A stretch of DNA of 64,000 nt from Octopus vulgaris (Eukaryota), in assembly GCA_951406725.2 (NCBI GenBank), contig OX597821.1, forward strand, positions 54,374,001 through 54,438,000. The letters are read 5' to 3'. The stretch's first letter is position 1. Each line of letters begins with the position of its first letter. Shown one piece after another: positions 6,749 through 64,000 of this stretch. The notes under the pieces were generated by a model. The model did not search any database. It was given only the letters and a program-made list of their open reading frames with translations, and had not been told where the DNA came from. Position numbers and translations under genes: made by a program.

Positions 6749-6923
6749 ATATCTGACTCACTAGAAAGAGCAGTTAAAACTCCAAGCCACCAAATGTTGT
6801 AATTCCGAAAGTGATTGGAAAATAAAAACTTTTACTTTAATCCTTTTATTTTCCAATCACTTTCAGAATTACAACAATTGGTGGCTTGGAGTTTTAACTG
6901 CTCTTTCTAGCAAGTCAGATACC
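6747..6923. repeat. Inverted-repeat cassette (~80 bp arms) abutting (TA)n
   Basis: 6747-6827 is the near reverse complement of 6844-6923, with a ~16 nt spacer. Confidence 0.9.
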
Positions 6924-10376: not shown

Positions 10377-10390
<14 letters not shown>

Positions 10391-10513
10391 ATATTAGGGA
10401 ATAAATCCAAATTTACAGGCAAAAAAAATCAGATTTAGGATTAAATCCAATTTTATAGTAAAATATTATATAATATTAATTAGAGACAAAATAGTGGTTT
10501 TGTCTCTAATTAA

Positions 10514-10517
<4 letters not shown>
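10377..10517. mobile_element. Truncated hairpin cassette of the same family as 54701-55020 and 55291-55550, without the ribozyme loop
   Basis: AAATATTAGGGAATAAATCCAAATTTACAGG...GATTTAGGATTAAATCCAATTTTATAGTAAA is shared with those copies. It has a terminal hairpin AATATTAATTAGAGACAAAA/TTTTGTCTCTAATTAATATT and (TA)n on both sides. Confidence 0.85.
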
Positions 10518-10565
<48 letters not shown>

Positions 10566-18480: not shown

Positions 18481-18644
18481 AGACGTAGGAGTGGCTATGT
18501 GGTAAGTAGCTTGCTTACCAACTACATGGTTCCGGGTTCAGTTCCACTGTGTGGCACCTTGGGCATGTGTCTTCTACTATAGCCTCGGGCTGACCAAAGC
18601 CTTGTGAGTGGATTTGGTAGATGGAAACTGAAAGAAACCCATCG

Positions 18645-18687
<43 letters not shown>

Positions 18688-18897
18688 TTGTGTGTCTGTG
18701 TCCCCCCAACATCGCTTGACATCTGATGTTAGTGTACTTACATCACCGTAACTTAGCGGTTCGGCAAAAGAGACAGATAGAATAAGTACTAGGCTTACAA
18801 AGAATAAGTCCTGAGGTCGATTTGCTCGACTAAAGGTGGTGCTCCAGCATGGCCACAGTCACATGACTGAAACAAGTAAAAGAGAATAAAAGAGAAT
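18481..18897 (+). mobile_element. SINE family B (tRNA-derived head, internal (TA)/(TG) microsatellite, LINE-like 3' tail)
   Basis: A box TGGCTATGTGG, B box GGTTCAGTTCC, and 3' end GGTGCTCCAGCATGGCCACAGTCACATGACTGAAAC-AAGTAAAAGAG. Confidence 0.9.
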
Positions 18898-25900: not shown

Positions 25901-26336
25901 AATGAAGGATAACATTTTTTCGAAAAAAAATATATTCTTTTTCAAAAAAATTTTATCAATGGCCAGCATATCAAAAAATACCTTTAAAGGTTAAATCTAT
26001 AAACAATTCATAATTAAGGGCAAACGAAAAAATTTCTAATGCCAGATATGCACATATTGTCCATTAACCATAATTTTTTCACAATATGCACGCTACTCGA
26101 AAAAAGGTCGACAGAAATTTCTAAAACATTCCAATGTATCACTGACGAAGGGAGGGCTGTTATAAGCTAACCCTGAAATCGGTCCGATATGGTAATAATG
26201 AAATGTTTTAGAAATTTCTGTCAACCTTTTTTCGAGTAGTGTGCATATTATGAAAAAATTATATGGTTAATGGACAATATGTCCAATTTTTCGGCATATC
26301 TGGCATTAGAAATTTTTCGTTTGCCCTTAATTATGA

Positions 26337-32645: not shown

Positions 32646-33279
<634 letters not shown>

Positions 33280-33419: not shown

Positions 33420-36400
33420 CTAGTTTCAGCTTATGAGCTGTGGCCATGCTGGGGCACCGCCATTTGGTGTCGCTACTTGGTTTCACTTCATGGAGGCTTT
33501 CTAGCAACTGCTATTTGGTGCATGAGAGAGTTCGATGCAGCTGCCCTCATCTGCCCCTCCTGCCGTGAAGTTGGTTCATCTGGGACACCTGACAGGAAGA
33601 GATCCAGCTTCATTTTAAAGACATCTGTATCCACCCCATGCAGGTCTCTCAGGTTCTTCGGGAGGATATTGAAGAGCTGTGGGCCTCGGAAGCCCAGGCT
33701 ATCACAGAATCTTGTCCTACATCTTGATGGCAGGTTTGGAGTCCTAGGCACCACGCAGTGGCGCCCAGTTCTGGCATTTGCGTAACTCTCGATGCCAAAG
33801 TTCAGGACACTTCCTCCAGGATCTTCCAGATGTATATTATGGCATATCTTTCCCGCCTACGCTCCAGGGAATATAATTTTAATCTCTTGAGTCTTTCCCA
33901 GTAGCTTACATTCTGCATAGAGGCTATCTTCTTTGTGTAGCTTCGTTGAATCGCCTCAAGTTCTGTGATCAACTTGACACTGGATGGTGACCATAGCTGA
34001 GAGCAATAGTCAAAGTGGCTTAGGACAAGTGTCTTCCAGAGGACCATCATGGTTTCTTGTTCTCTTGTTCTAAAGGTTCTAAGAATCCATCCAGCCAGCC
34101 GTCTACATTTCATTGTCAGTTTAGCAACATGTACATGAAAGGTCGCGTCATCACTCATGTGAATACCCAGGTCACGCACTGATTGTGCCTCTGGGATTGC
34201 AATCCCTCCGGGTCCAGTGTATTCATTGGGTATTGCATTCAGTTTTGCATGCTGATAGTATAAAGCTTGAAACTTTCCAGCATTGAACTGCATGCTATTC
34301 TTTTCAGCCCACTTGTATATTTCGTCCAGCTCACATTGCAGGTGTTTAGTGTCCTCAGGGTTCTGTATTGCCTGTGAAACTTTTGTATCATCTGCATAAC
34401 TTGTGATCGTGGCTCTCTGCGTGGCTGAGGGCATGTCTGAGAGGGCCATTATGAACAGTAGTGGTCCCAGAACAGTGCCCTGCGGAACACCGCTCACTAT
34501 TTGTGTGTTAATGGAGGTGGCCCCATTGGCTACTACCACCTGACTTCTATCCTTCAGAAAGTCATGAAGCCATTCTCCCAGTTTTCCAACTATGTTGAGA
34601 TCACGCAGTTTGTGACATATCATTCCATGATCGACTTTATCAAAGGCCTTTGCAAAGTCGAGATATATCACTTCCACATTTGAGTGGTTGAGCAGCCGTT
34701 TCAGCACCCAGTCATAGTGTTGTAGGAGCTGAGTTAAACAGCTTCTCCCTGGTCGGAAACCATGTTGGGTGTCGGGCAGCAAGTCATTCTCTTCAAGGAA
34801 GGTGATCAGCTTCCTTCTGACTATTCGTTCCATGACCTTGCTGATGTGTGAGGTCAGAGAGATAGGTCTATAGTTCTTGGCTTCCGCTCTGCTACCTCCT
34901 TTATGAATGGGGCATATTTTACCTTCCTTCAGTTTTCCTGGAAGTTTGCCAGCTGCAAGGAAGCTCTGAAAGAGGAACTGCAGTGGTCTTGCTAGGACTC
35001 TCTTACATGCTTTTAGGAGGATTGCCGGGAATCCATCGGGGCCAGTAGCTGAGTCTGTTTTCATTTCATCTATAGCCTTGGTTACATCGTCTTCCTTTAT
35101 ATCGATGTAATCTATCGTCGCCGCCTCTGATTTTATATCTGCAGTGGTAAAAAAAGTCAGTTGGATTGGTGATTTGGAGATGCCCAAGGGGTGGAGTGAA
35201 AACACTCTTGAATTGCTCATTCAGTATTTCACTTACCCTCATTGGTTTTCCTGTAAGTGTGCCATCCTTTTCGAGGAGTGGCCCTATTCTACAGTGCACT
35301 GTAGCTGTTTCTTTGGCATACCTGTAGAAAGCCCTGGGGTTAGATTTTATGTTTTCTATAGCCCAGGCTTCTTTGTCTGCTCTTTCTTTTCATGGGAGAG
35401 TTGCAGACATTTTTCGATTTCCAACAGTTTTATTTTTAGGCGGGACTTTTCACTGCTTTCAATCTGTTTGTTTAGGCGATTTGAAAATTTCGTACGCCGT
35501 CTCATTAAAATTTTCCTCTCTCTGGGGATTTTGTTCTTGTGTACAGTGGCCTTTCTCTCTGGGACACATTTGTAGCATATGGCTTGCATTACAGACATGA
35601 ATTGTTGGAGTTTCACGTCGATGTCTGGCGAGGAGAGACATTTAGGCCAGTTTTGTTTGAGGATCTCTTTCTCAATTTGTTTCCAGTTTGCCTTATGGTA
35701 GTTCAAGCTGGAAAGATTTTGAGGGTTTCTTGTAGGCTGCATGTCCGTGCTCTCTTTTGGCCCGTACATGGTCAGCTCTATCATGTTGTGATCCGAGAGT
35801 AGTGTCGGTGTCACTTTCACATTATGGATGAGATCCATGTCATTTGTGAAGCAGAGATCCAGTGTGTTACCTGCCCTGGTTGGTTGGAGTATTACCTGCT
35901 CCATGTACAGGGTGTTGATGAGGTTCAGGAGGGACCTCGCCTGTCCTCGTTCACATCTTGTCATTCCTGGGAGAGAAAGGCCCTCGGGCCATCTGACATT
36001 GGGCAGATTGAAGTCTCCCATAAGAAGCACACCTATGTGTTGTTCTAATGTGGTTAGAATTTCTTCTATTTTTATAAGGCAGTCTTCAAACTTGCCCACA
36101 TGGCTTGGGGCATCTGGAGGGCTGATATGTAGCACACACAACTACATCAAGTTGCCTAATATGTACAATTAGTGTGTCACACACCGAGTTTGAGTATGAC
36201 AAGAGGACCTGGGATGTGAGGTCCTCACGGATGTACATAGCAACACCTCCATGACTCCTTTCTTTCCTGTCGGTCCGTAGTACAGCATACTGTGGTATGT
36301 GTAACTCCGCATCTGCTATGTCCGGTTTCAGGTGCGTTTCTGTAAGTGCTATGCATATGGCTTGATTGCATGCAACAAAGTCTCTCAGGAACGGGATCTT

Positions 36401-37081: not shown

Positions 37082-37486
37082 AGGAGGCACAAAAGTGGCT
37101 GTGTGGCAAGTAGTTTGCTTACCAACCACATGGTTCCAAGTTCATTCCCACTGCGTGGCATCTTGGGCAAGTGTCTTCTATAGCCTCGGGCCGACCAAAG
37201 CCTTGTGAGTGGATTTGGTAGATGGAAACTGAAAGAAGCCCATCGTATATATGTATATATATATGTGTATGTGTGTGTATATGTTTGTGTGTCTGTGTTT
37301 GTCCCTCCAACATCGTTTGACAACCAACGGTGGTGTGTTTACATCCCTGTAACTTAGCAGTTCAGCAAAAGAGATCGATAGAATAAGTACTAGGCTTACA
37401 AAGAATAAGGCCTGGGGTCGATTTGCTTGGCTAAAGGTGATGCTTTAGTATGACCACAGTCAAATGACTGAAACGAGTAAAAGAGT
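37082..37486 (+). mobile_element. SINE family B
   Basis: Collinear with 18481-18897. Confidence 0.9.
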
Positions 37487-37872
37487 ATATACATTGCTAT
37501 GGTTGTGATATTTCATCTCTCCTAGCTAGTAGTAACATATGGCTGTTAAATCTAATTCTGAAAGGACCTTTTGTCGTGCCCACATATTTTTGCATGTTCA
37601 TCCACCCACTGGAGTCCTTTGACATCACCTCTATATTATACTAATGAACTATAGTAAAGAACTTAAATTGTAAATGCAAATTCTTTTGATCTGGCCTACA
37701 AGAAAAAGAAAATATATGCTTGAATGCCAAGAGACTGCACCATGACTATAAACGTCAAAGTTTCCATCAACATTAATACAGCCTCTCTTTTTTAAAAATA
37801 TATGTGTTTGCTTTTTCTGACCTATGGATTCTTTGATGGCTACACACATATACACACACACACATATATATA

Positions 37873-38165
37873 TTCATGATAGAATATAAGGAGAAAAATC
37901 ACGTTAATGATCTTTATCAGGTAGTCAGCATGCTATAAAAATTTATAGGTAATTTATGCATTAAATTAATGTACATATGTTTATAACTATATTAAGGGAG
38001 CAAAGGCAAAAAACGACCTATCTTCAGCATGCTTTAAGTGCCGAGACCTTCAAAAACCTACAAAAAACAGGTAGTTTTTTAAAGGTCTCAGTACTTCAAC
38101 CATGCTGGAGATAGGTCGTTTTTGCCCTTGTCTTAATATAATTATATACACATGTATATTATTAA
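37873..38165. mobile_element. Hairpin cassette (tail + ~95 bp imperfect inverted arms) between TA-rich tracts
   Basis: ~37966-38060 pairs with ~38070-38165 (GGCAAAAAACGACCTATCTTCAGCATG / CATGCTGGAGATAGGTCGTTTTTGCC). Confidence 0.75.
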
Positions 38166-38287: not shown

Positions 38288-40727
38288 ATCATCATCATCA
38301 TCGTTTAACGCCCGTTTTCCATGCTAGCACGGGTTGGACAGTTCGACCAGGGTCTGAGAAGCCAGGGGCTGCACTAGGCTCCAGTCTGATCTGGCAGTGT
38401 TTCTACAGCTGGATGCCCTTCCTAACGGCAACCACTCCGCGAGTGTAGTGGGTGCTTTTTACGTGCCACCGGCACAGGGGCCAGGGGAGTCTGGCATCGG
38501 CCACGATTGGTTGGTGCTTTTAACGTGCCACTGGCACGGAAGCCAGTCGAGGCAGCGCTGGCATCGGCCACGTTCGGATGGTGCTTTTTATGTGCCACCG
38601 GCACGGAAGCCAGTCGAAGCGGCGCTGGCATCGGCCACGTTCGGATGGTGCTTTTTATGTGCCACCAGCACAGAAGCCAGTTGAGGTGGTGCTGGCATCG
38701 GCCACGTTCGGATGGTGCTTTTTACGTGCCACCGGCACAGGTATCACAACTACTATTTCCATTGATATTTATTTCGATGTTCATGTACTTGACTCAATAG
38801 GTCTCCTCAAGCACAGTGGGATGTTCTGGAATCCAAGGTACTTTGAATGGGCAGGGACTATGCGGGACTGGTGCAGGAAGCAGCCCGGGTCTTTGCAGTC
38901 ACAGCATATCTCCAGAGATCTTGGTCCTTCGCCATTGCCTCTGTGAGGCCCAACGCTTTTAGGTCATGCTTGACTACCTCATCCCATGTCTTCCTGGGTC
39001 TACCTCTCCCCCTGATACCTTCAACTGTTTGGGAGCGGCACTTCTTCACACATCTCTCCTCATCCATCCGCAGTACATGACCATACCATCACAAGCATCG
39101 CTCTTGCACACCACATCTGATGCTTCTTATGTCCAGCATTTCTCTCAGGTGCTTACCTCTGTCGTGCACGCACACTGACATTACACATCCAGCGGATCAT
39201 GCCTAGCTTCATTTCTTTCAAGTCTACGCATGTCCTCTGCAGTCACAGCCCATGTTTCACTACCGTGAAGCATGGCAGTTTGCACACATGCATCATACAA
39301 TCTACCTTTCACTCTGAGCGAGAGACCCTTTGTCGCCAGTAGGGGTAGGAGCTTTCTAAACTTTGCCCAGGTTATTCGTATTCTAGTGGTGACACTCTCT
39401 GAGCATCCACCTCCACTACTAACTTGGTCACCCAGGTAGCGGAAACTACCAACTACTAGTTTCTTCCCTGGCGTGTGATGGATTCTGTTTTCTGAGTATC
39501 TGTGGTGTCTATTGTCCCTGTGCATCTGCCGCACATGAAAGCTATCTTATCAGTTAATTTCCCTTTGATGTTGCTGCACCTCTTATGCATCCATAGCTTA
39601 CACTTGGTACATCTTATGGAGTTTCTACCTACATCTTTCCTACAGATCGAGGAGGGCCACCTGCCCAAGGGTGTGTGTGCTGAGTTCGCCTTTCTGCTTA
39701 CTATAACTTTGGTCTTTGCTACATTTACTCTAAGGCTCTTTGATTCTAACCCTTGCTTTCACACCTGAAATTTCTTTTCTAGTTCCGGTAGTGATTCTGC
39801 TATGAGAGCCAAGTCATCAGCATAGAGAAGCTCCCAGGGGCAACCTGTTTTGAATTCCTCTATTATCGCCTGGAGGACTATGATGAATAAAAGGGGACTG
39901 AGGGCTGATCCTTGGTGTACACCTACTTCTACCCGGAATTCTTCACTATATTCGTTGCCAATTCTAACCTTGCTGACAGCCTTTCAGTATAGGGCCTGTA
40001 CAGCCCTTACTAGCCATTCGTCAATCTCCAGTTTCCACATCGACCACCAGATAAGGGATCAGGGGACCCTGTCAAAGGCTTTCTCCAAGTCTACAAAAGC
40101 TATGCAGAGGGGTTTATCTTTAGCTAGGTACTTCTCCTGCAGTTGTCTGACCAGGTATATAGCATCAGTGGTGCTTCTACCCGGCACAAAACCGAACTGC
40201 ATCTCATCTAAGCAAATTCTCTCCCTAATGAGATGGGTTATGACCCTCTCTGAGACCTTCATCACCTGATCCAACAGTTTAATACTCCTGTAGTTATTTC
40301 TATCTAGAGCATCACCCTTACTCTTGTAGCAGTTGACTATAGTGCTGCTACGCCAGTCATTGGGTATGACTCCATTATGAACTACCTGATTTAAAATGCG
40401 GGTGACTAGGCCATAGCCCACATAACAAGCTGTTTTAAGCATTTCAGCAGTGATTCCTGATGGGCCTGAGGCTTTACCTGGTTTCATACCCTTAATTGCC
40501 TTAACTACAAGGGAGCTGTCTATTCGGATAGCTGGTCCCTCTACTGGGTCAACATTTGGCAGGCTCTCCTCCTCCCATTCATTCTCCACATTCAGCAGTC
40601 TTTCATAATGGCTTCTCCAAGCCTCTTTCTTTCACCATCATTAAAAGCAAGTGCCCCATCATCCATGCGGACACATTTCTCTCCTGTAACATCACTATTT
40701 TCTCTCACACACTGTCTAGCAATCCGA
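38288..40727 (-). mobile_element. 5'-truncated RTE LINE (RT domain, 3'UTR repeats, (GAT)n tail)
   Basis: QFGFVPGRSTTDAI, AFVDLEKAFDRVP, GVHQGSALSPLLF, LLYADDL and MLHGSETW. Possible TSD ATATATCATCATCA at ~38284 and ~40733. Confidence 0.95.
38452..38742. repeat. 67-nt tandem repeat in the RTE 3'UTR
   Basis: GTGCTTTTTA(C/T)GTGCCACCGGCAC units start at ~38452, ~38514, 38581, 38648 and 38715. Confidence 0.9.
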
Positions 40728-46099: not shown

Positions 46100-46322
46100 T
46101 ATCATCATCATCGTTTAACGTCTGTTTTCCATGCTAGCATGGGTTGGACGGTTCGACCAGGGTCTAGGAAGCCAGGAGGCTGTGCCAGGCTCCAGGCTGA
46201 TCTGGCAGTGTTTCTACAGCTGGATGCCCTTCCTAACACCAACCACTCCATGAGTGTAGTGGGTGCTTTTTATGTGCCTCTTGCACAGGGGCCAGAGGAG
46301 GCTGGCAATGGCCATGATCAGT
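46100..46322 (-). mobile_element. RTE 3' tail, very similar to 38288-38510
   Basis: ATCATCATCATCGTTTAACG...CATGCTAGCA...GTTCGACCAGGGTCT. Confidence 0.85.
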
Positions 46323-48197: not shown

Positions 48198-48452
48198 ACT
48201 TTTTACTCTTTTACTTGTTTCAGTCATTTGACTGTGGCCATGCCGGAGCACCGCCTTTAGTCAAGCAAATTGACCCCAGGACTTATTCTTTGTAAGCCTA
48301 GTACTTATTCTATCGGTCTCTTTTGCTGAACTGTTAAGCTACAGGGATGCAAACACACAAGCATCACTTGTCAAGCAATGTTGGGGGGAGGGACAAACAC
48401 AGACGCACAAACATATACACACACATACATATATATACATACATATATATAC

Positions 48453-48485
<33 letters not shown>

Positions 48486-48516
48486 CATACATATATACAT
48501 ACATATACATACATAT

Positions 48517-48593
<77 letters not shown>

Positions 48594-48868
48594 TTGTTAT
48601 CGCCATATTAATATGGCAGTCTTATAGATATAAGACTAAAAGCTGTCGCTGATTAGCTCCATGAGGCCATCACCTTAAGATAGCTATTTGACACACAAAC
48701 TGTGTCCATTATAACCTTCGAACAAGGAGCTAATCAGCGACAGCTTTTAGTCTTATATCTATAAGACTGCCATATTAATATGGCGATAACAATTAATTTC
48801 CAGTAATGCTGCCGTAATCTCTTTTAGAGAGACTTAGTAATTTTAATATTTCTATTATATATATATTG

Positions 48869-48929
<61 letters not shown>

Positions 48930-49091
48930 TACGACGGGCTTCTTTCAGTTTCTGCCTACCAAATCCACTCACAAGGCTGTGGTCAGCCCAAGGCTATAGT
49001 AGAAGACACTTTCCCAAGGTGCCATGCAATGGGACTGTACCCGGAACCATGTGGTTCGTAAGCAAGCTACTTACCACACAGTCACTCCTAC

Positions 49092-50752: not shown

Positions 50753-51272
50753 GGACACTAAACTCTGCTTGTGAAGACCTGTTGAGGCAAGTGAAATCGA
50801 AATTGAAATCAAATTCGATGACTGGCATCCCTGCTAGTAGAGCACTAAGAGTACCATACGAGTGTGATCGATGCCAGAGCAACAAATTGGCCTCCGTGCG
50901 GTGGCATGTAAAAAGCACCACTCATGCGTGATCATTACCTTTGTTGCCTTACTGGCAATTGTGCTGGTGGAACGTGAAAAAAGATTAGAGTGAGGTCGTT
51001 GCCAGTGCCGCTGGACTGGCTCCTGTGCAGGTGGCACATAAAAAGCACCATTTGAGTGTGGCTGTTGCCAGTACTGCCTGACTGGCCCTCGTGCTGGTGG
51101 CATGTAAATGCACCCACTACACTTTTAGAGTGGTTGGCGTTAGGAAGGGCATCCAGCTGTAGAAACTCTGCCAGATCAGATTGGAGTCTGGTGCAGCCAT
51201 CTGATTCGCCAGACCTCAGTCAAATCGTCCAACCCATGCTAGCATGGAAAGCGGACATTAAATGATGATGAT
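50753..51272 (+). mobile_element. RTE 3'UTR with tandem repeats and (GAT)n tail
   Basis: GGTGGCA(C/T)(A/G)TAAAAAGCACC units, AGGAAGGGCATCCAGCTGTAGAAAC and GGACATTAAATGATGATG. Confidence 0.85.
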
Positions 51273-52030: not shown

Positions 52031-52470
52031 CAGACATAGGAGTGGCTGTGTGGTAAGTAGCTTGCTTACCAGCCACATGGTTCTGGGTTCAGTCCCATTG
52101 CATGGCACCTTGGGCAAGTGTCTTCTACTATAGCCTCGGGCCGACCAAAGCCTTGTGAGTGAATTTGGTAGACGGAAACTGAAAGAAGCCCGTCGTATAT
52201 AAGTATGTGTGAGTGTGAGTGTGTGTGTGTGTGTGTATGTATGTGTGTGTATATGTTTCTGTGTCTGTCCCCCCCAACATCGCTTGACAACCGATGGTGG
52301 TGTGTTTACATCCCTGTAACTTAGCAGTTCAGCAAAAGAGACCAATAGAATAAGCACTAAGCTTACAAAGAATAAGTCCTGGGGTCGATTTGCTCAATTT
52401 AAGGCAGAGCTCCAGCATGGCTACAGTCAAATGACTGAAACAAGTAAAAGAGTAAGAGTAAAAGAGAGAG
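52031..52470 (+). mobile_element. SINE family B, full length
   Basis: Collinear with 18481-18897. Confidence 0.9.
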
Positions 52471-54514: not shown

Positions 54515-54649
54515 ATTGTTCTAGCCTTCAATGAATACTTGGATGAATGTATGTATATGTATGTATGTATGTATATGTGTGTGTGTATATATATATTTAT
54601 ATATATACCTATACATACATACATTTATATATATATACACAAATACACA

Positions 54650-54700
<51 letters not shown>

Positions 54701-54710
<10 letters not shown>

Positions 54711-55020
54711 TTAGAGACAAAACCACTATTTTGCAAAACAAACAAGGAAAGACTTAATCAATACATAAAATTTTAATAAAAAGTAAAAAAACCGCCACTA
54801 CAATTGTTTCATGTCCTCAATGACAATCTTCAGGTGGATTTCCGATTTTCAAATCAGTTTATTAAAATTTTATGTATTGATTAAGTCTTTCCTTGTTTGT
54901 TTTACAAAATAGTGGTTTTGTCTCTAATTAATATTATATAATATTTTACTATAAAATTGGATTTAATCCTAAATCTGATTTTTTCCCTGTAAATTTGGAT
55001 TTATTCCCTAATATTTATTA
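54701..55020 (-). mobile_element. Hairpin cassette in (TA)n with a hammerhead ribozyme in the loop
   Basis: Arms 54701-54780 and 54858-54937 are near-perfect inverted repeats; the tail is 54938-55020. Confidence 0.85.
54795..54837 (-). ncRNA. Minimal type I hammerhead ribozyme
   Basis: CCAC-CTGAAGA-TTGTC-ATTGAG-GACAT-GAAAC-AATT-GTA-GTGG: stem I CCAC/GTGG, palindromic stem III ACAATTGT, GUA triplet. Confidence 0.8.
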
Positions 55021-55042
55021 TATATATATATATATATATATA

Positions 55043-55256
55043 CAGTATTCCCTTGCTATAGCGTGGTTCACCTATTGCAGTTCATTATTTAAGCTTATGT
55101 CGATTCCTCTGTGATGTTGTTTTGCATTTAAATAAAATAAATATATACAAATCATAAAAATAATTAAAAAATTATACATTACAGTACTGTTTCTACTTCA
55201 CTGATTTTCATCCAGCGGCAGATGTTTTGGCACATAACACCTACGATAGTCAAGGG

Positions 55257-55262
<6 letters not shown>
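55043..55262. mobile_element. pogo/Tigger-like MITE in (TA)n
   Basis: Ends TA|CAGTATTCCCTTGCTATAGCGTGG and CCTACGATAGTCAAGGG resemble decayed Tigger-type TIRs. Confidence 0.55.
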
Positions 55263-55290
<28 letters not shown>

Positions 55291-55306
<16 letters not shown>

Positions 55307-55548
55307 ATATTAGGGAATAAATCCAAATTTACAGGGAAAAACTCAGATTTAGGATTAAATCCAATTTTATAGTAAATTAAATTAAAACAGATTAGGAGAT
55401 CGAAAATCCATCTGACGAATGTCATTGAAGACATGAAACGATTGTAGTGGCGGTTTATTTCTTTATATTAAAAATTTTTATGTATTGATTAAGTCTTTCC
55501 TTGTTTGTTTTGCAAAATAGTGGTTTTGTCTCGAATTAATATTATATA

Positions 55549-55687: not shown

Positions 55688-56103
55688 TTTTATTCTTTTA
55701 CTTGTTTCAGTCATTTGACTGCAGCCATGCTGGAGCACCACCTTTAGTCAAGCAAATTGACCCCAGGACTTATTCTTTGTAAGCTTAGTACTTATTCTAT
55801 CGGTCTCTTTTGTCGAACTGCTAAGTTAAGGGGACATAAACATACCTCCATCGGTTGTCAAGCAATGTCGGCAGGGGGGACAAACATTGACACACAAACA
55901 CACACACATACACATATATATATATATAAACATATATACAATGGGCTTCTTTCAGTTTCCATCTACTAAATCTAAATCCACTAACCAGGCCTTGGTCAGC
56001 CCAAGGCTATAGTAGAAGACACCTGCCCAAGGTGCCACACAGTGGAACTGAACCTGGCACCATGTGGTTGGTAAGCAAGCTACTTACCACACAGCCACTC
56101 CTG
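55684..56103 (-). mobile_element. SINE family B, full length
   Basis: Reverse complement collinear with 18481-18897. Confidence 0.9.
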
Positions 56104-56129
56104 ATATATATATAAATATAATCTCTTAG

Positions 56130-56430
56130 CTTTTGTTTGTTTCAGCCATTTGACTAGCAGCCATGCTGGACTACCACCTTGAAGAATTTTAGTTTATCAA
56201 ATTGAGTACTGTATTTTCTTTTATTGCTTTTACTTGTTTCTATCATTTGATTGTGGCCATGCTGGAGCACCAGTTTTAGTTGAACAAATCAACCACAGGA
56301 CTTCTTCCTTTTAAGTCTACTACTTATTCTATCAGTCACCTTTGCTGAACTACGAAGTTACTGGGATGCAAACACACTAACATCGTTTGTCAAGCAATGA
56401 TGGTGAGGACAAACACAGACACACAAATAT
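56130..56430 (-). mobile_element. SINE family B 3' fragments (two tandem tails)
   Basis: Two successive TTGTTTC..CATTTGA...GCCATGCTGGA blocks. Confidence 0.7.
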
Positions 56431-58905: not shown

Positions 58906-59167
58906 AGGCGCATGTGTGGCTATGTGGTAGAAAGTTTGCTTTACAAGTACATGGTTCTAGGTTCAGTGCCCCAACTATAGACCTGGGTCAACCAATGCCT
59001 TATGAATAGATTTGAGAGAGAGAAACTGAAGCTTGCTTCCCAACCACATGGTTCCGGGTTCAGTCCCACTGTGTGGTATCTTGGGCAAGTGTCTTCTTTT
59101 ATAAACCCAAGCTGACCAAGGCCTTGTGGGTGGATTTGGTTAATGGAAACTGAAAGAAGCCTATCAA

Positions 59168-59198
<31 letters not shown>

Positions 59199-60065
59199 CT
59201 ACATATGTGGAAAATTCTGTGTGTGTGTGTGTGTGTTTGTGGGGTTGTTAGCTAACTCCTACATTGTTTTATCAATTCTGATGAAACTTGACACATGAGT
59301 AGAATTCGTGTCTGGAAACCTCATGGCAGACTCAGATTGTTGAAAAAATTCAGCAGTAGGGCCCCTCGAAAGGATCCTTATATATCTAATATATTTCATT
59401 TTAACAGTCAAGGGAAATAACCTATTCGCCCAGATTTTAATAGACAAGGGAAATAACCCATTCATTTTCCTAAATCATTTGGTATAAATCAAATTGAGTA
59501 TGCTTATTTCTTAGTTTTTGAGCTGTTAGAGTTATTTTCACAATTTATGCAGTACAACCCTTAAACAAGTAAATAATTATTTCTTTTACTTGTTAAAATA
59601 ATTATTTCTTTTAGTTGTTAATATAAAATATATTAGTTATATATAAGGATCCCTTCCAGGAGCCCTATTATCGATTTTGTTTCAACAATCTGAGTATGCC
59701 ATGAGGTTTCCAGACATGAATTCTACTCAAGTTTCATCAATAAAATCAATAAAATGATGTAGGAGGAGTTAGCTAAGAACTCCGCAAACAAATACACCCC
59801 CAGACAGAATTTCCCATATATGTAGTATATATATATATATATATGTCTATATTTGTGTGTCTGTGTTTGTCCCACCACCATTGCTTGACAACCAATGTTG
59901 GTGAGTTTACGTCCCTGTGACTTCATGGTTTGGCGATAAAAGAGACTGATAGAATAAATACTAGACTTACAAAGAATAAGTCCTGGGATCGAAATGTCTG
60001 ACTAAATGCGGTGCTCCAGCATGACTGCAGGCAAAATGACTGAAACAAGTAAAAGAACAAAAGAA
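58906..60065 (+). mobile_element. SINE family B with a duplicated head, split by a foldback element
   Basis: Heads at 58906-59030 and 59031-59165; the 3' half is at 59845-60065. Confidence 0.8.
59198..59827. mobile_element. Foldback/MITE with long (~200 bp) imperfect terminal inverted repeats
   Basis: TACTACATATGTGGAAAATTCTGT...GAGTAGAATTCGTGTCTGGAAACCTCATGGCA...GGATCCTTATATA is mirrored at 59640-59827. Confidence 0.85.
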
Positions 60066-61818: not shown

Positions 61819-62012
61819 TAGACACACACACTATATATTTGGTCTTTGCTTCAGCATTATTATTATTATTATTATTATCTTAGTTTATTTGTCAAAGCTT
61901 TGATGTCAGTGAACTAAGCAGAACAAGAGGAGACAAGTGAGATAGGGAGTTGCTGAAAGGGTCACGGGATGTATGACAAAAGAACTTTGACAAAGAAACT
62001 AAAATAATAATA

Positions 62013-62228
62013 ATCTTTTCTACTCTAGGCAAAAGGCCCGAAATGTTTGGGGAGGGGGCCAGTCAATTAGATCGACTGCAGTACCTAACTGATACCTAAT
62101 TTATCAACCCTGAAAGGATGAAAGGCAAAGTTAACCTCGGCGAAATTTAAACTCAGAACATCAAGACAGACGAAATACTGCTAAGCATTTTGCCCAGCAC
62201 GCTAACAATCCTGCCAGCACACTGCCTT
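62013..62228 (-). mobile_element. SINE family A
   Basis: TTTATCAACCCTGAAAGGATGAAAGGCAAAGTTAACCTCGGCG...ACTGCCTT. Confidence 0.85.
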
Positions 62229-64000
62229 ACTAAAATAATAATAATACAACTGAAGTGAAGACCAGATAAGTAGAGCATGTGTTTAATTGGCAAAATATGA
62301 AACATCCCCTAGTATAGCAATATCTGTTTCAACACACATCAACCATCTTGCAAAACAAATACATTTTACTATTCTTATATTTTGGAACGGTAATGTTTTT
62401 TCTTGCCATATAAACACACACACACACTATATATTCATTTTTTGCTTGTTATTATTGTTCTTATTTTGTGTCCTTTGTCTGGAAATCTTTCATCACACGT
62501 CCTGTGACCTCTTCAGCAACTCTTCCAGCCTACATGTCTCCTCCTTTTCTATTTAGTCCATTGTCTTGCTATGATGTTGATACCTTGTCTGTGCATGTGT
62601 TTGCATCTGTATCTGTGTGTGTGTGTGTGCGTGCGTGTGTGTATGCATGTTTATGTGTTTTTATGTGTTTTGTGTGTGTATTTATGGGTTTGCTTACTAT
62701 ACTGCTTGTAGCTGTACCCTCTATACAGTTTTGTTTTTCCTTCATTTCCTTATTTATCTCTGTATGTATACATATATATATATATAGAAAGAGAGAGAGG
62801 GGGAGATAGATAGAGAGAGAGAGAGAGAGTGTGTGTGTATGAGTATGAAAGAGGAAGAAACATGATAGTTTATTGAACAAACATGATTTACATAAACACT
62901 TTCCTTCTCAAAAACAAAATATACTCACAAAGAGAAAGAGGAAGTGGGGGAACGGATTACTGGAACATTAAAACCAGAGAAACATAAAAATGTCTCACAT
63001 CAAATAAGTAAACATTGAATCAGCAATATCAAATAGGCAGTACTAAAATAAGCTTTGCTAAAATGTCTTACACCTTCATGTCTCACACCCTCAATGGTTG
63101 CTTTTGGCTTTTGGTCTGTGAAGAAATTTTGGTTTGTTTCTTTTTTTAGTTGACATACATATATAGCTTTTGCAGCATTCACTACTGGGATCTTTTGACA
63201 AATTTTCCTATTGGAACTATTTCAATATGTGAACCTTTGCTAACCTCTTTGTCTCTTTTTTTTGACATCTCTGACATGAGGCTCCCATTCACAGCTCAGA
63301 ACATAAGACTACCTTAGAATGTCTGACACATTACACACATTTCTTTTCTCTATTCAATGACCTAGTGTTTAGGATGTTCGACTCCTGATCGTAAGATCAT
63401 GGGTTCAAGTAGATCTGGCCATGCCCGTTAACAAGGGCAAAACCCAGATTTAAAACACTGGATGATGATGATGATGATGATGATGATTACTCCCAGTATA
63501 CTCAGTTGTAATGAGCAGCCAGCTGATTGCTAGTGTAGCTCTCTTTTCCTCCAGCTGTGACATTCTGGATGTTTCATTTGTTCAAAAGCAGGGGAACCAA
63601 AGGAGTATCTCTGTCTACTTGTACATATTATCAAGCTATGTTCACTCACAAGTTATGGCTGACTGTACTCTATGTACTTCAGTTTCCCATAGATTTACAT
63701 TTGTTGAAATATGAAGTATTAGTCTAATAAACAGTGAATATTTTAATCAAAGCAATATTTTTATAATAAATGTATTTTAAATTTTATTAAAGAATTATAA
63801 AATTAGTTCAGAATTAGTAGATGTTTTCAATTTCAAAAGAATAAATGAACGCACAAAAATTGAATACAAAATATTCTTTAATATTTCTTTGATAACTTAA
63901 ATAATTTCAATAACCTTGAATATGTTATAACATTCCTTCATTGAACAATAAATACATTATTTACAAAATCTCTAACCATTGGATTAGGCAGGTTTTATTA

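Follow-up and report, generated by a model that had tools for sequence, protein, structure and literature searches.

A hammerhead motif in a (TA)n-flanked stub of Octopus vulgaris, most likely the 3' end of a Penelope-like element

Hammerhead and inverted arms of copy A

The window, by which we mean the whole 64-kb stretch that was analyzed, consists of microsatellite-rich, animal-type DNA. A 43-nt hammerhead string given in an earlier note was present exactly as written on the minus strand at 54837-54795, and the hammerhead was confirmed to be real and correctly read. It lies in one copy (copy A) of a short repeat, whose modules were delimited by comparing the region with the window by BLAST: H comprises the hammerhead and about 20-30 nt of preceding sequence, T is about 85 nt, and M is about 80 nt. 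In minus-strand order, copy A reads M, inverted T, H, and T. The features of copy A are as follows.

54795..54837, minus: type I hammerhead (core pattern and folding)
54837-54834 with 54798-54795, minus: stem I
54833-54827 and 54810-54807, minus: hammerhead core
54825-54822 with 54815-54812, minus: stem II, with U-U at 54826/54811
54807-54800, minus: palindromic stem III, predicted cut after 54799
54788..54849, minus: predicted stem I extension (folding, two copies compared)
54698..54857, minus: direct 5'-truncated element end, made of about 20 nt of upstream sequence, the hammerhead, and T, running into (TA)n
54780-54698, minus: end module T of the direct copy, 83 nt (arm)
54858..54940, plus: inverted 5'-truncated T (second arm), 82 of 83 positions pairing with 54698-54780, facing the direct copy head to head
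54930..54945, no strand: AT-only perfect 16-bp palindrome, (TA)n-like, marking the T/tail boundary, which is the end of direct copies
54941..55021, plus: tail module M', about 80 nt, on the inverted copy only, 76/77 identical to copies B and C
54644..54703, no strand: (TA)n microsatellite at the direct-copy end (likely target site)
55019..55042, no strand: (TA)n microsatellite at the tail end

As had been claimed, all catalytic core nucleotides (CUGAAGA and GAAAC) were present, stem I was perfect (CCAC/GUGG, four Watson-Crick pairs), and stem III was an 8-nt palindrome. A scan with the core pattern likewise placed the predicted cut 3' of GUA, after the A at 54799 of the minus strand; GUA before the cut occurs among natural hammerheads (PMC1636495). 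The type I assignment is based on CUGANGA, GAAA, a UH triplet, a three-helix junction, and an open stem I, which were found in both copy A and copy B (see below). Stem II of copy A had 4 bp and a 6-nt loop, and its position 10.1-11.1 was occupied by U opposite U instead of a purine-pyrimidine pair such as the A-U of copy B. Folding further predicted an extension of stem I, consisting of a 5-nt bulge followed by 7 bp (54849-54843 with 54794-54788), of which copy B was predicted to keep 6 bp, with A-U pairs changed to G-U, as far as a comparison of two copies goes.

The inverted arms, described earlier as 80 bp, were 83 bp long and were paired at 82 of the 83 positions around a 77-nt loop. The 331-nt region of copy A folded with -132.9 kcal/mol (z -15.6), which was matched by none of 100 shuffles. 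When the arms were present in the fold, the probability of stem I with its extension increased from 0.08-0.13 to 0.58-0.85, stem II had a probability of 0.02-0.03, and stem III of 0.00.

A generic hammerhead core pattern gave two matches in the 64 kb against 0.10 expected, and two matches were reached by one of 100 shuffles; the two are not independent because both lie in one repeat family. The 53-nt hammerhead on its own folded no better than shuffles (z 0.48). An Rfam scan gave no match to a hammerhead model, neither at the gathering threshold nor at E values up to 10; its 33 weak matches were all under the gathering scores and were mostly to microRNA models on microsatellites. Hammerheads of the type seen here slip past the Rfam models.

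Further copies in the window and in public sequencing runs

Two further copies of the repeat were found in the window. They had been overlooked by the earlier note, together with the second hammerhead, the common 80-nt module, and the bulged stem I extension.

55300..55548, plus: copy B, which reads M, H, and T, bordered by (TA)n and (TAA)n
55300-55376, plus: inverted tail only of copy B, the direct copy beginning at about 55378
55408-55450, plus: hammerhead of copy B, with CUGACGA, A-U at 10.1-11.1, and a predicted cut after 55446
10384..10519, plus: copy C, made of the inverted tail, 28 nt of inverted T, and the last 31 nt of T

All three copies had (TA)n at their ends, and they shared two identical outer ends and differed in three inner joints. 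In each of them, a direct truncated copy stood head to head with an inverted truncated copy, and M' was found on the inverted one only. The inverted arm was 83 nt in copy A, 0 nt in copy B, and 28 nt in copy C. The idea that the arms specially enclose the ribozyme was abandoned, since the arms differ from copy to copy and correspond to the inverted 5'-truncated partner known from insertions of Penelope-like elements (PLEs). In copy C, which has no hammerhead, the two T parts are joined via five shared bases and (TA)n lies on both sides; this copy may be copy A minus the centre of the hairpin, that is, a deletion, but an inversion at a 5-bp hairpin explains it just as simply.

Copies A and B are separated by a 222-bp spacer (55041-55262) that is unique in the window and has (TA)n on either side. 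They were taken as separate insertions because of this unique spacer, although they may be of joint origin. The A-U hammerhead (55408-55450, plus) and the U-U hammerhead (54837-54795, minus) stand head to head, about 570 bp apart. T and the tail are near-identical between the two copies and the hammerhead region agrees at 53 of 63 positions, as though the ends had been homogenized or exchanged. An open frame of 21 codons on the reverse strand of the tail was dismissed, as it has no start.

Parts of the stretch were carried by 20 of the 24 public sequencing runs listed, from nine studies; none of these runs is registered as RNA, which says nothing for or against transcription. For a survey of the family, contigs of four runs were aligned to copy B; X1 and X2 were presumed to be DNA and X14 and X19 to be RNA, these types being guesses. 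The contigs on copy B numbered 1610 in X1, 7961 in X2, 141 in X14, and 21 in X19. Contigs running from tail M into inverted T were found in all four runs (23, 71, 5, and 2 contigs, respectively), and T running into the reverse of M was seen in X2, X14, and X19 among the ends listed. These loose-end junctions indicate that the family sequence is H-T-M' and that the M of each window copy belongs to the inverted copy. The M-to-T inversion joints among those listed were six, all different, four of them at 55513-55517; a seventh listed joint, inside M, was excluded from this count. These four may have arisen by later deletion in hairpins of the copy C type and not by independent insertion.

Over T, the summed depth of X1 increased in the direction of the 3' end, from 0.39 million to 1.39 million, with 0.06-0.24 million in the hammerhead bins and 0.013-0.046 million upstream; contig depth is not a copy number, and edge effects blur this gradient. 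The ratio of hammerhead to tail depth was 0.14 in both presumed DNA runs. The gradient is the pattern of 5' truncation, and the hammerhead is missing from most copies. The family is abundant, and copy A is one of a great many such stubs. Relatives were sought by pattern scans of metagenome contigs, viral contigs, and prokaryotic genomes, and no loci were found. In X19, the hammerhead bins had 7.4 times the depth of the tail bins, an excess that rests mainly on one 73-nt contig, and the U-U type was dominant; in X14, the other presumed RNA run, the ratio was 0.054. The X19 contig is not from the locus of copy A, because its loose ends differ from those of copy A. The X19 hammerhead contigs (55407-55460), whose flanks are unlike both window copies, may come from the parent element.

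The window also holds other repeats. At 32650-32885, a different short repeat, also present at 46108-46295 and 51082-51268, is represented by two truncated copies that stand head to head with their outer ends running into (CAT)n; the fold-back pattern thus recurs in a family unrelated to that of copy A. More fold-back repeats, of 150-330 bp or with arms of 110-165 bp, were found at 6761-6910 (directly after (TA)n), 26016-26328, 37988-38140, 48604-48782, 59256-59765, and 61907-62563. A two-part SINE-like family was abundant (18481-18897, 37082-37489, 48205-49081, 52032-52467, 55702-56403, and 59003-60056), with microsatellites between its parts and in both orientations.

Dimer behaviour and the U-U variant

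The claim that this is a dimer-type hammerhead was borne out in silico. Stem III had a probability of 0.00 in monomers, its 8-nt strand was self-complementary in both copy A and copy B, and a stable double fold was obtained. In the cofold of copy B with itself, the active double hammerhead was the minimum (-24.4 kcal/mol), and it lay 2.2 kcal/mol above the minimum for A with A and 0.9 above for A with B. A short palindromic helix III was reported for PLE hammerheads by Cervera and de la Pena (2014; PMC4209133), and in the same paper the one minimal PLE motif tested showed no cleavage as a monomer and low cleavage as a dimer. These models make the dimer reading plausible. The hammerhead alone would be unable to form stem III; cleavage would need either a double hammerhead formed from tandem or paired parent transcripts, or the aid of a protein. 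In the copy A stub, the long arms would keep stem I intramolecular and would hinder the double hammerhead, because the latter presumably requires the stem I strands to exchange partners. Judged from the folds, the ribozyme of copy A is probably inert.

The earlier note had also pointed to a U-U mismatch at the first stem II pair as a sign that this copy may be impaired. The mismatch is there; its reading as decay of copy A did not hold, since it is part of a linked variant found in all four runs. The depths of A at N7 and U at 10.1 were matched in X1 (3022 and 3039 of about 55,000), X2 (2377 and 2206 of 15,097), X14 (78 and 78 of 127), and X19 (551 and 538 of 551). Furthermore, U-U is the commonest state at 10.1-11.1 in PLEs of the Hydra clade, with 14 of 25 families in File S2 of PMC8557442, a count made from 26 rows with one family twice and with 11 of the 14 U-U families from one species. 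Our literature search found no test of cleavage by hammerheads with U-U at 10.1-11.1.

Copies A and B were identical at 76 of 77 positions in M, 81 of 83 in T, 38 of 43 in the hammerhead, and 15 of the 20 nt upstream. A check of whether the core is kept better than its flanks therefore gave no support, the hammerhead (38/43) being set against flanks of 81/83 and 76/77. The five hammerhead differences lie in stem I, at N7, at 10.1, at one base of loop II, and at one base of stem III. The stem I pair is C-G in A and U-G in B, a change private to B, as nearly all the contig depth has C; the stem III change replaces an A-U pair of the dimer with G-U. The variant listing had no row for the positions of loop II and stem III that differ between A and B, and a missing row is uninformative. 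None of the five changes falls on an invariant core base and all of them fit the fold. However, five changes would spare 11 invariant bases of 43 by chance with a probability of about 0.2; the changes are thus compatible with selection on the core and are no proof of it.

Origin of the family

PLE insertions are strongly 5'-truncated and often have an adjoining inverted 5'-truncated copy and a 30-40-bp tail at one end (PMC8557442); head-to-head inverted junctions were described, and self-priming argued, by Arkhipova et al. (2013; PMC3846280). Each of the three window copies pairs a 5'-truncated direct copy with a 5'-truncated inverted one that abuts it head to head, and all fit a published PLE insertion in that the direct copy ends at T and the inverted copy ends at M'. 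The hammerhead lies on the sense strand of a terminal repeat with a (TA)n target, the sense being deduced from the truncation gradient. Like EN+ PLEs (PMC4209133, PMC3846280, and PMC8557442), the family has, close to its 3' end, a type I hammerhead whose helix III is short and palindromic, as well as AT-rich targets, strong 5' truncation, the head-to-head inverted partner, and an extension at one end only, and its motifs occur mostly in dispersed single truncated copies with some opposite-strand pairs 100-700 bp apart. Unlike in those elements, the one-sided extension present in all three copies is about 80 nt instead of 30-40, and no ORF was seen in the window. Compared with the minimal-hammerhead consensus, the extra base after A9 and G10.1-C11.1 are absent here. 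An arrangement with a hammerhead near the end and an inverted partner is already known for PLEs; only the 80-nt tail is unusual.

In hammerhead style and target, the closest group is the Hydra clade of PLEs with a C-terminal endonuclease (Craig et al. 2021, Files S1 and S2), which shares (TA)n targets, stems I and II of 4 bp, an AC..GU stem III, and U-U at 10.1-11.1 as in the 14 of 25 families. The distance from hammerhead to 3' end is about 30-150 nt in that clade, as computed from two tables, and 97 nt here; its member Penelope-13_HM also has a 5'-truncated inverted copy. On the other hand, our hammerheads match none of those listed, including that of the octopus element Hydra-1_Obim, and the clade is defined by its protein (RWK and DKT motifs, a CxCX5C linker, and no CCHH in the endonuclease; PMC8557442). 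No PLE reading frame was seen in the window, and the reverse transcriptases among the 12 ORFs scanned were Pfam RVT_1, LINE-like, with an AP-type endonuclease next to one of them. LINE-like remnants with frames for an AP-type endonuclease and RVT_1 lie at 33805-36141 and 40062-40631, both on the minus strand. The family itself was not found in print, in the literature and two supplements; this is a weak negative, as the Octopus vulgaris annotation (PMC13282606) has as many as 190 Penelope-like families. Five short family motifs were absent from the supplement of Craig et al., and family motifs were absent from the searched supplement of the annotation paper, where in both cases line breaks may hide single motifs.

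Copy A is very probably a (TA)n-flanked stub of this kind, most likely a PLE 3' end (pseudo-LTR), possibly of the Hydra clade, with an arm that was likely made by the insertion. That the inverted arms are an insertion by-product is the most likely account, given an abundant H-T-M' family, coverage falling towards 5', and inversion joints at varying places. In AT-rich DNA, both strands are cut and then extended by the PLE protein that Frangieh et al. studied (2024; PMC11167929); its reverse transcription starts at two sites bounding the tail, and hammerhead cleavage is dispensable for insertion in vitro. By analogy, a PLE reverse transcriptase/GIY-YIG endonuclease encoded elsewhere would nick (TA)n, and the RNA would then be copied from its 3' end. 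The nascent cDNA would fold back on itself or meet a second cDNA primed at the other nick, which would give the inverted partner. M' would correspond to the PLE 'tail', bounded by two end points of which one lies at the target-like AT-only palindrome, and this palindrome at the T/M' boundary (54930-54945) is a plausible self-target of the endonuclease. The PAc Poseidon element of Anolis (PMC11167929) similarly has a tail that lies downstream of the hammerhead and is bounded by two end points, an AT-rich target, and extension of both strands; its hammerhead overlaps the start of an ORF, whereas both ATGs of the hammerhead region here meet stops within five codons.

Fold-back of the cDNA 3' end was examined by prediction. 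In the nascent cDNA of copy B, the strongest site was 55513 (p 0.89), which is also the inversion point of copy C and coincides with the cluster of four of the six listed joints (55513-55517). In the cDNA of copy A, the equivalent of 55513 ranked second (0.89), behind the edge of hammerhead stem I (0.91). At the joint of copy A itself, fold-back was predicted with p 0.17 at 8 nt and is weak unless about nine native bases are paired.

A variant of the PLE-end reading, not its opposite, would be a non-autonomous element of about 250 nt (hammerhead-T-M') whose own 5' end would lie about 25-35 nt upstream of the core and which would be mobilized in trans by a PLE and dispersed as a relative of the non-LTR retrozymes; we regard it as possible but doubtful. 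Copies A and B both start 24-34 nt upstream of the core, the X2 depth is flat across 55384-55410 (39, 39, and 32 thousand), no reading frame spans T and M' on inspection, and near-identical T and M' ends are common to two hammerhead subtypes. However, the X1 depth still drops upstream (46, 25, and 13 thousand), one X19 contig runs 49 letters past 55378, and no joint from tail end to hammerhead start, as expected of a tandem or a circle, was found among the 6+1 joints listed. The animal non-LTR retrozymes (Cervera and de la Pena 2020, PMC7229834; Li et al. 2026, 10.64898/2026.07.22.740005) are likewise short, non-coding, AT-rich, presumed to be PLE-driven, and equipped with a type I dimer hammerhead, and a unit of about 250 nt is possible. 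They have head-to-tail tandem hammerhead units and circular RNAs, whereas the copies here are dispersed, head to head, and mostly without a hammerhead. A non-LTR retrozyme proper was rejected, as there were no tandem units in the window and no such joint among those listed. A fuller version, in which the family is an abundant SINE-like parasite of about 250 nt of a Hydra-type PLE, with an 80-nt tail, fold-back hairpins, and an expressed, dimer-cleaving U-U subtype, is unlikely.

A MITE-like DNA transposon that had picked up a hammerhead and inserted at TA, with the arms as its terminal inverted repeats, is highly improbable. Arms of 83 bp with one mismatch, flanking TA runs, and a T depth 2.4 times that of the tail in X2 would suit such an element. 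Nevertheless, the 80-nt tail always lies between one arm and (TA)n, so that the repeats do not form the termini; T occurs just once in copy B, and no fixed terminal inverted repeats exist, the arms being 83, 0, and 28 nt. The joints vary, the coverage has a 5' gradient, and the T/tail depth ratio in X1 is 0.89.

A functional RNA hairpin, whose arms would clamp the hammerhead as a regulated, dimer-activated or dsRNA-processed switch, is very unlikely too. The stabilization of stem I by the arms would speak for it, as would the hammerhead/tail ratio of 7.4 in the presumed RNA of X19 compared with 0.14 in the DNA runs and the dominance of the U-U type there. The same fold, however, has stem II of copy A at 0.02-0.03 and stem III at 0.00, the X19 signal comes mainly from the 73-nt contig and not from the copy A locus, X14 has 0.054, and the arm architecture is not constant among copies. 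A chance match in AT-rich repeat DNA is scarcely credible, for although Rfam gave no match, the lone motif folds like shuffles, and selection on the core is not established with two copies, two matches were seen against 0.10 expected (one event, the copies being related), all three helices are present, the five A/B differences are compatible with the fold, and the motif sits about 100 nt away from an end bordered by (TA)n, in a layout like that of published PLE hammerheads.

On its own, the locus of copy A is of little consequence. The family bears on the cleavage competence of hammerheads with a U-U closing pair at 10.1-11.1, and it may help to show the origin of the inverted partner and the tail of PLEs.
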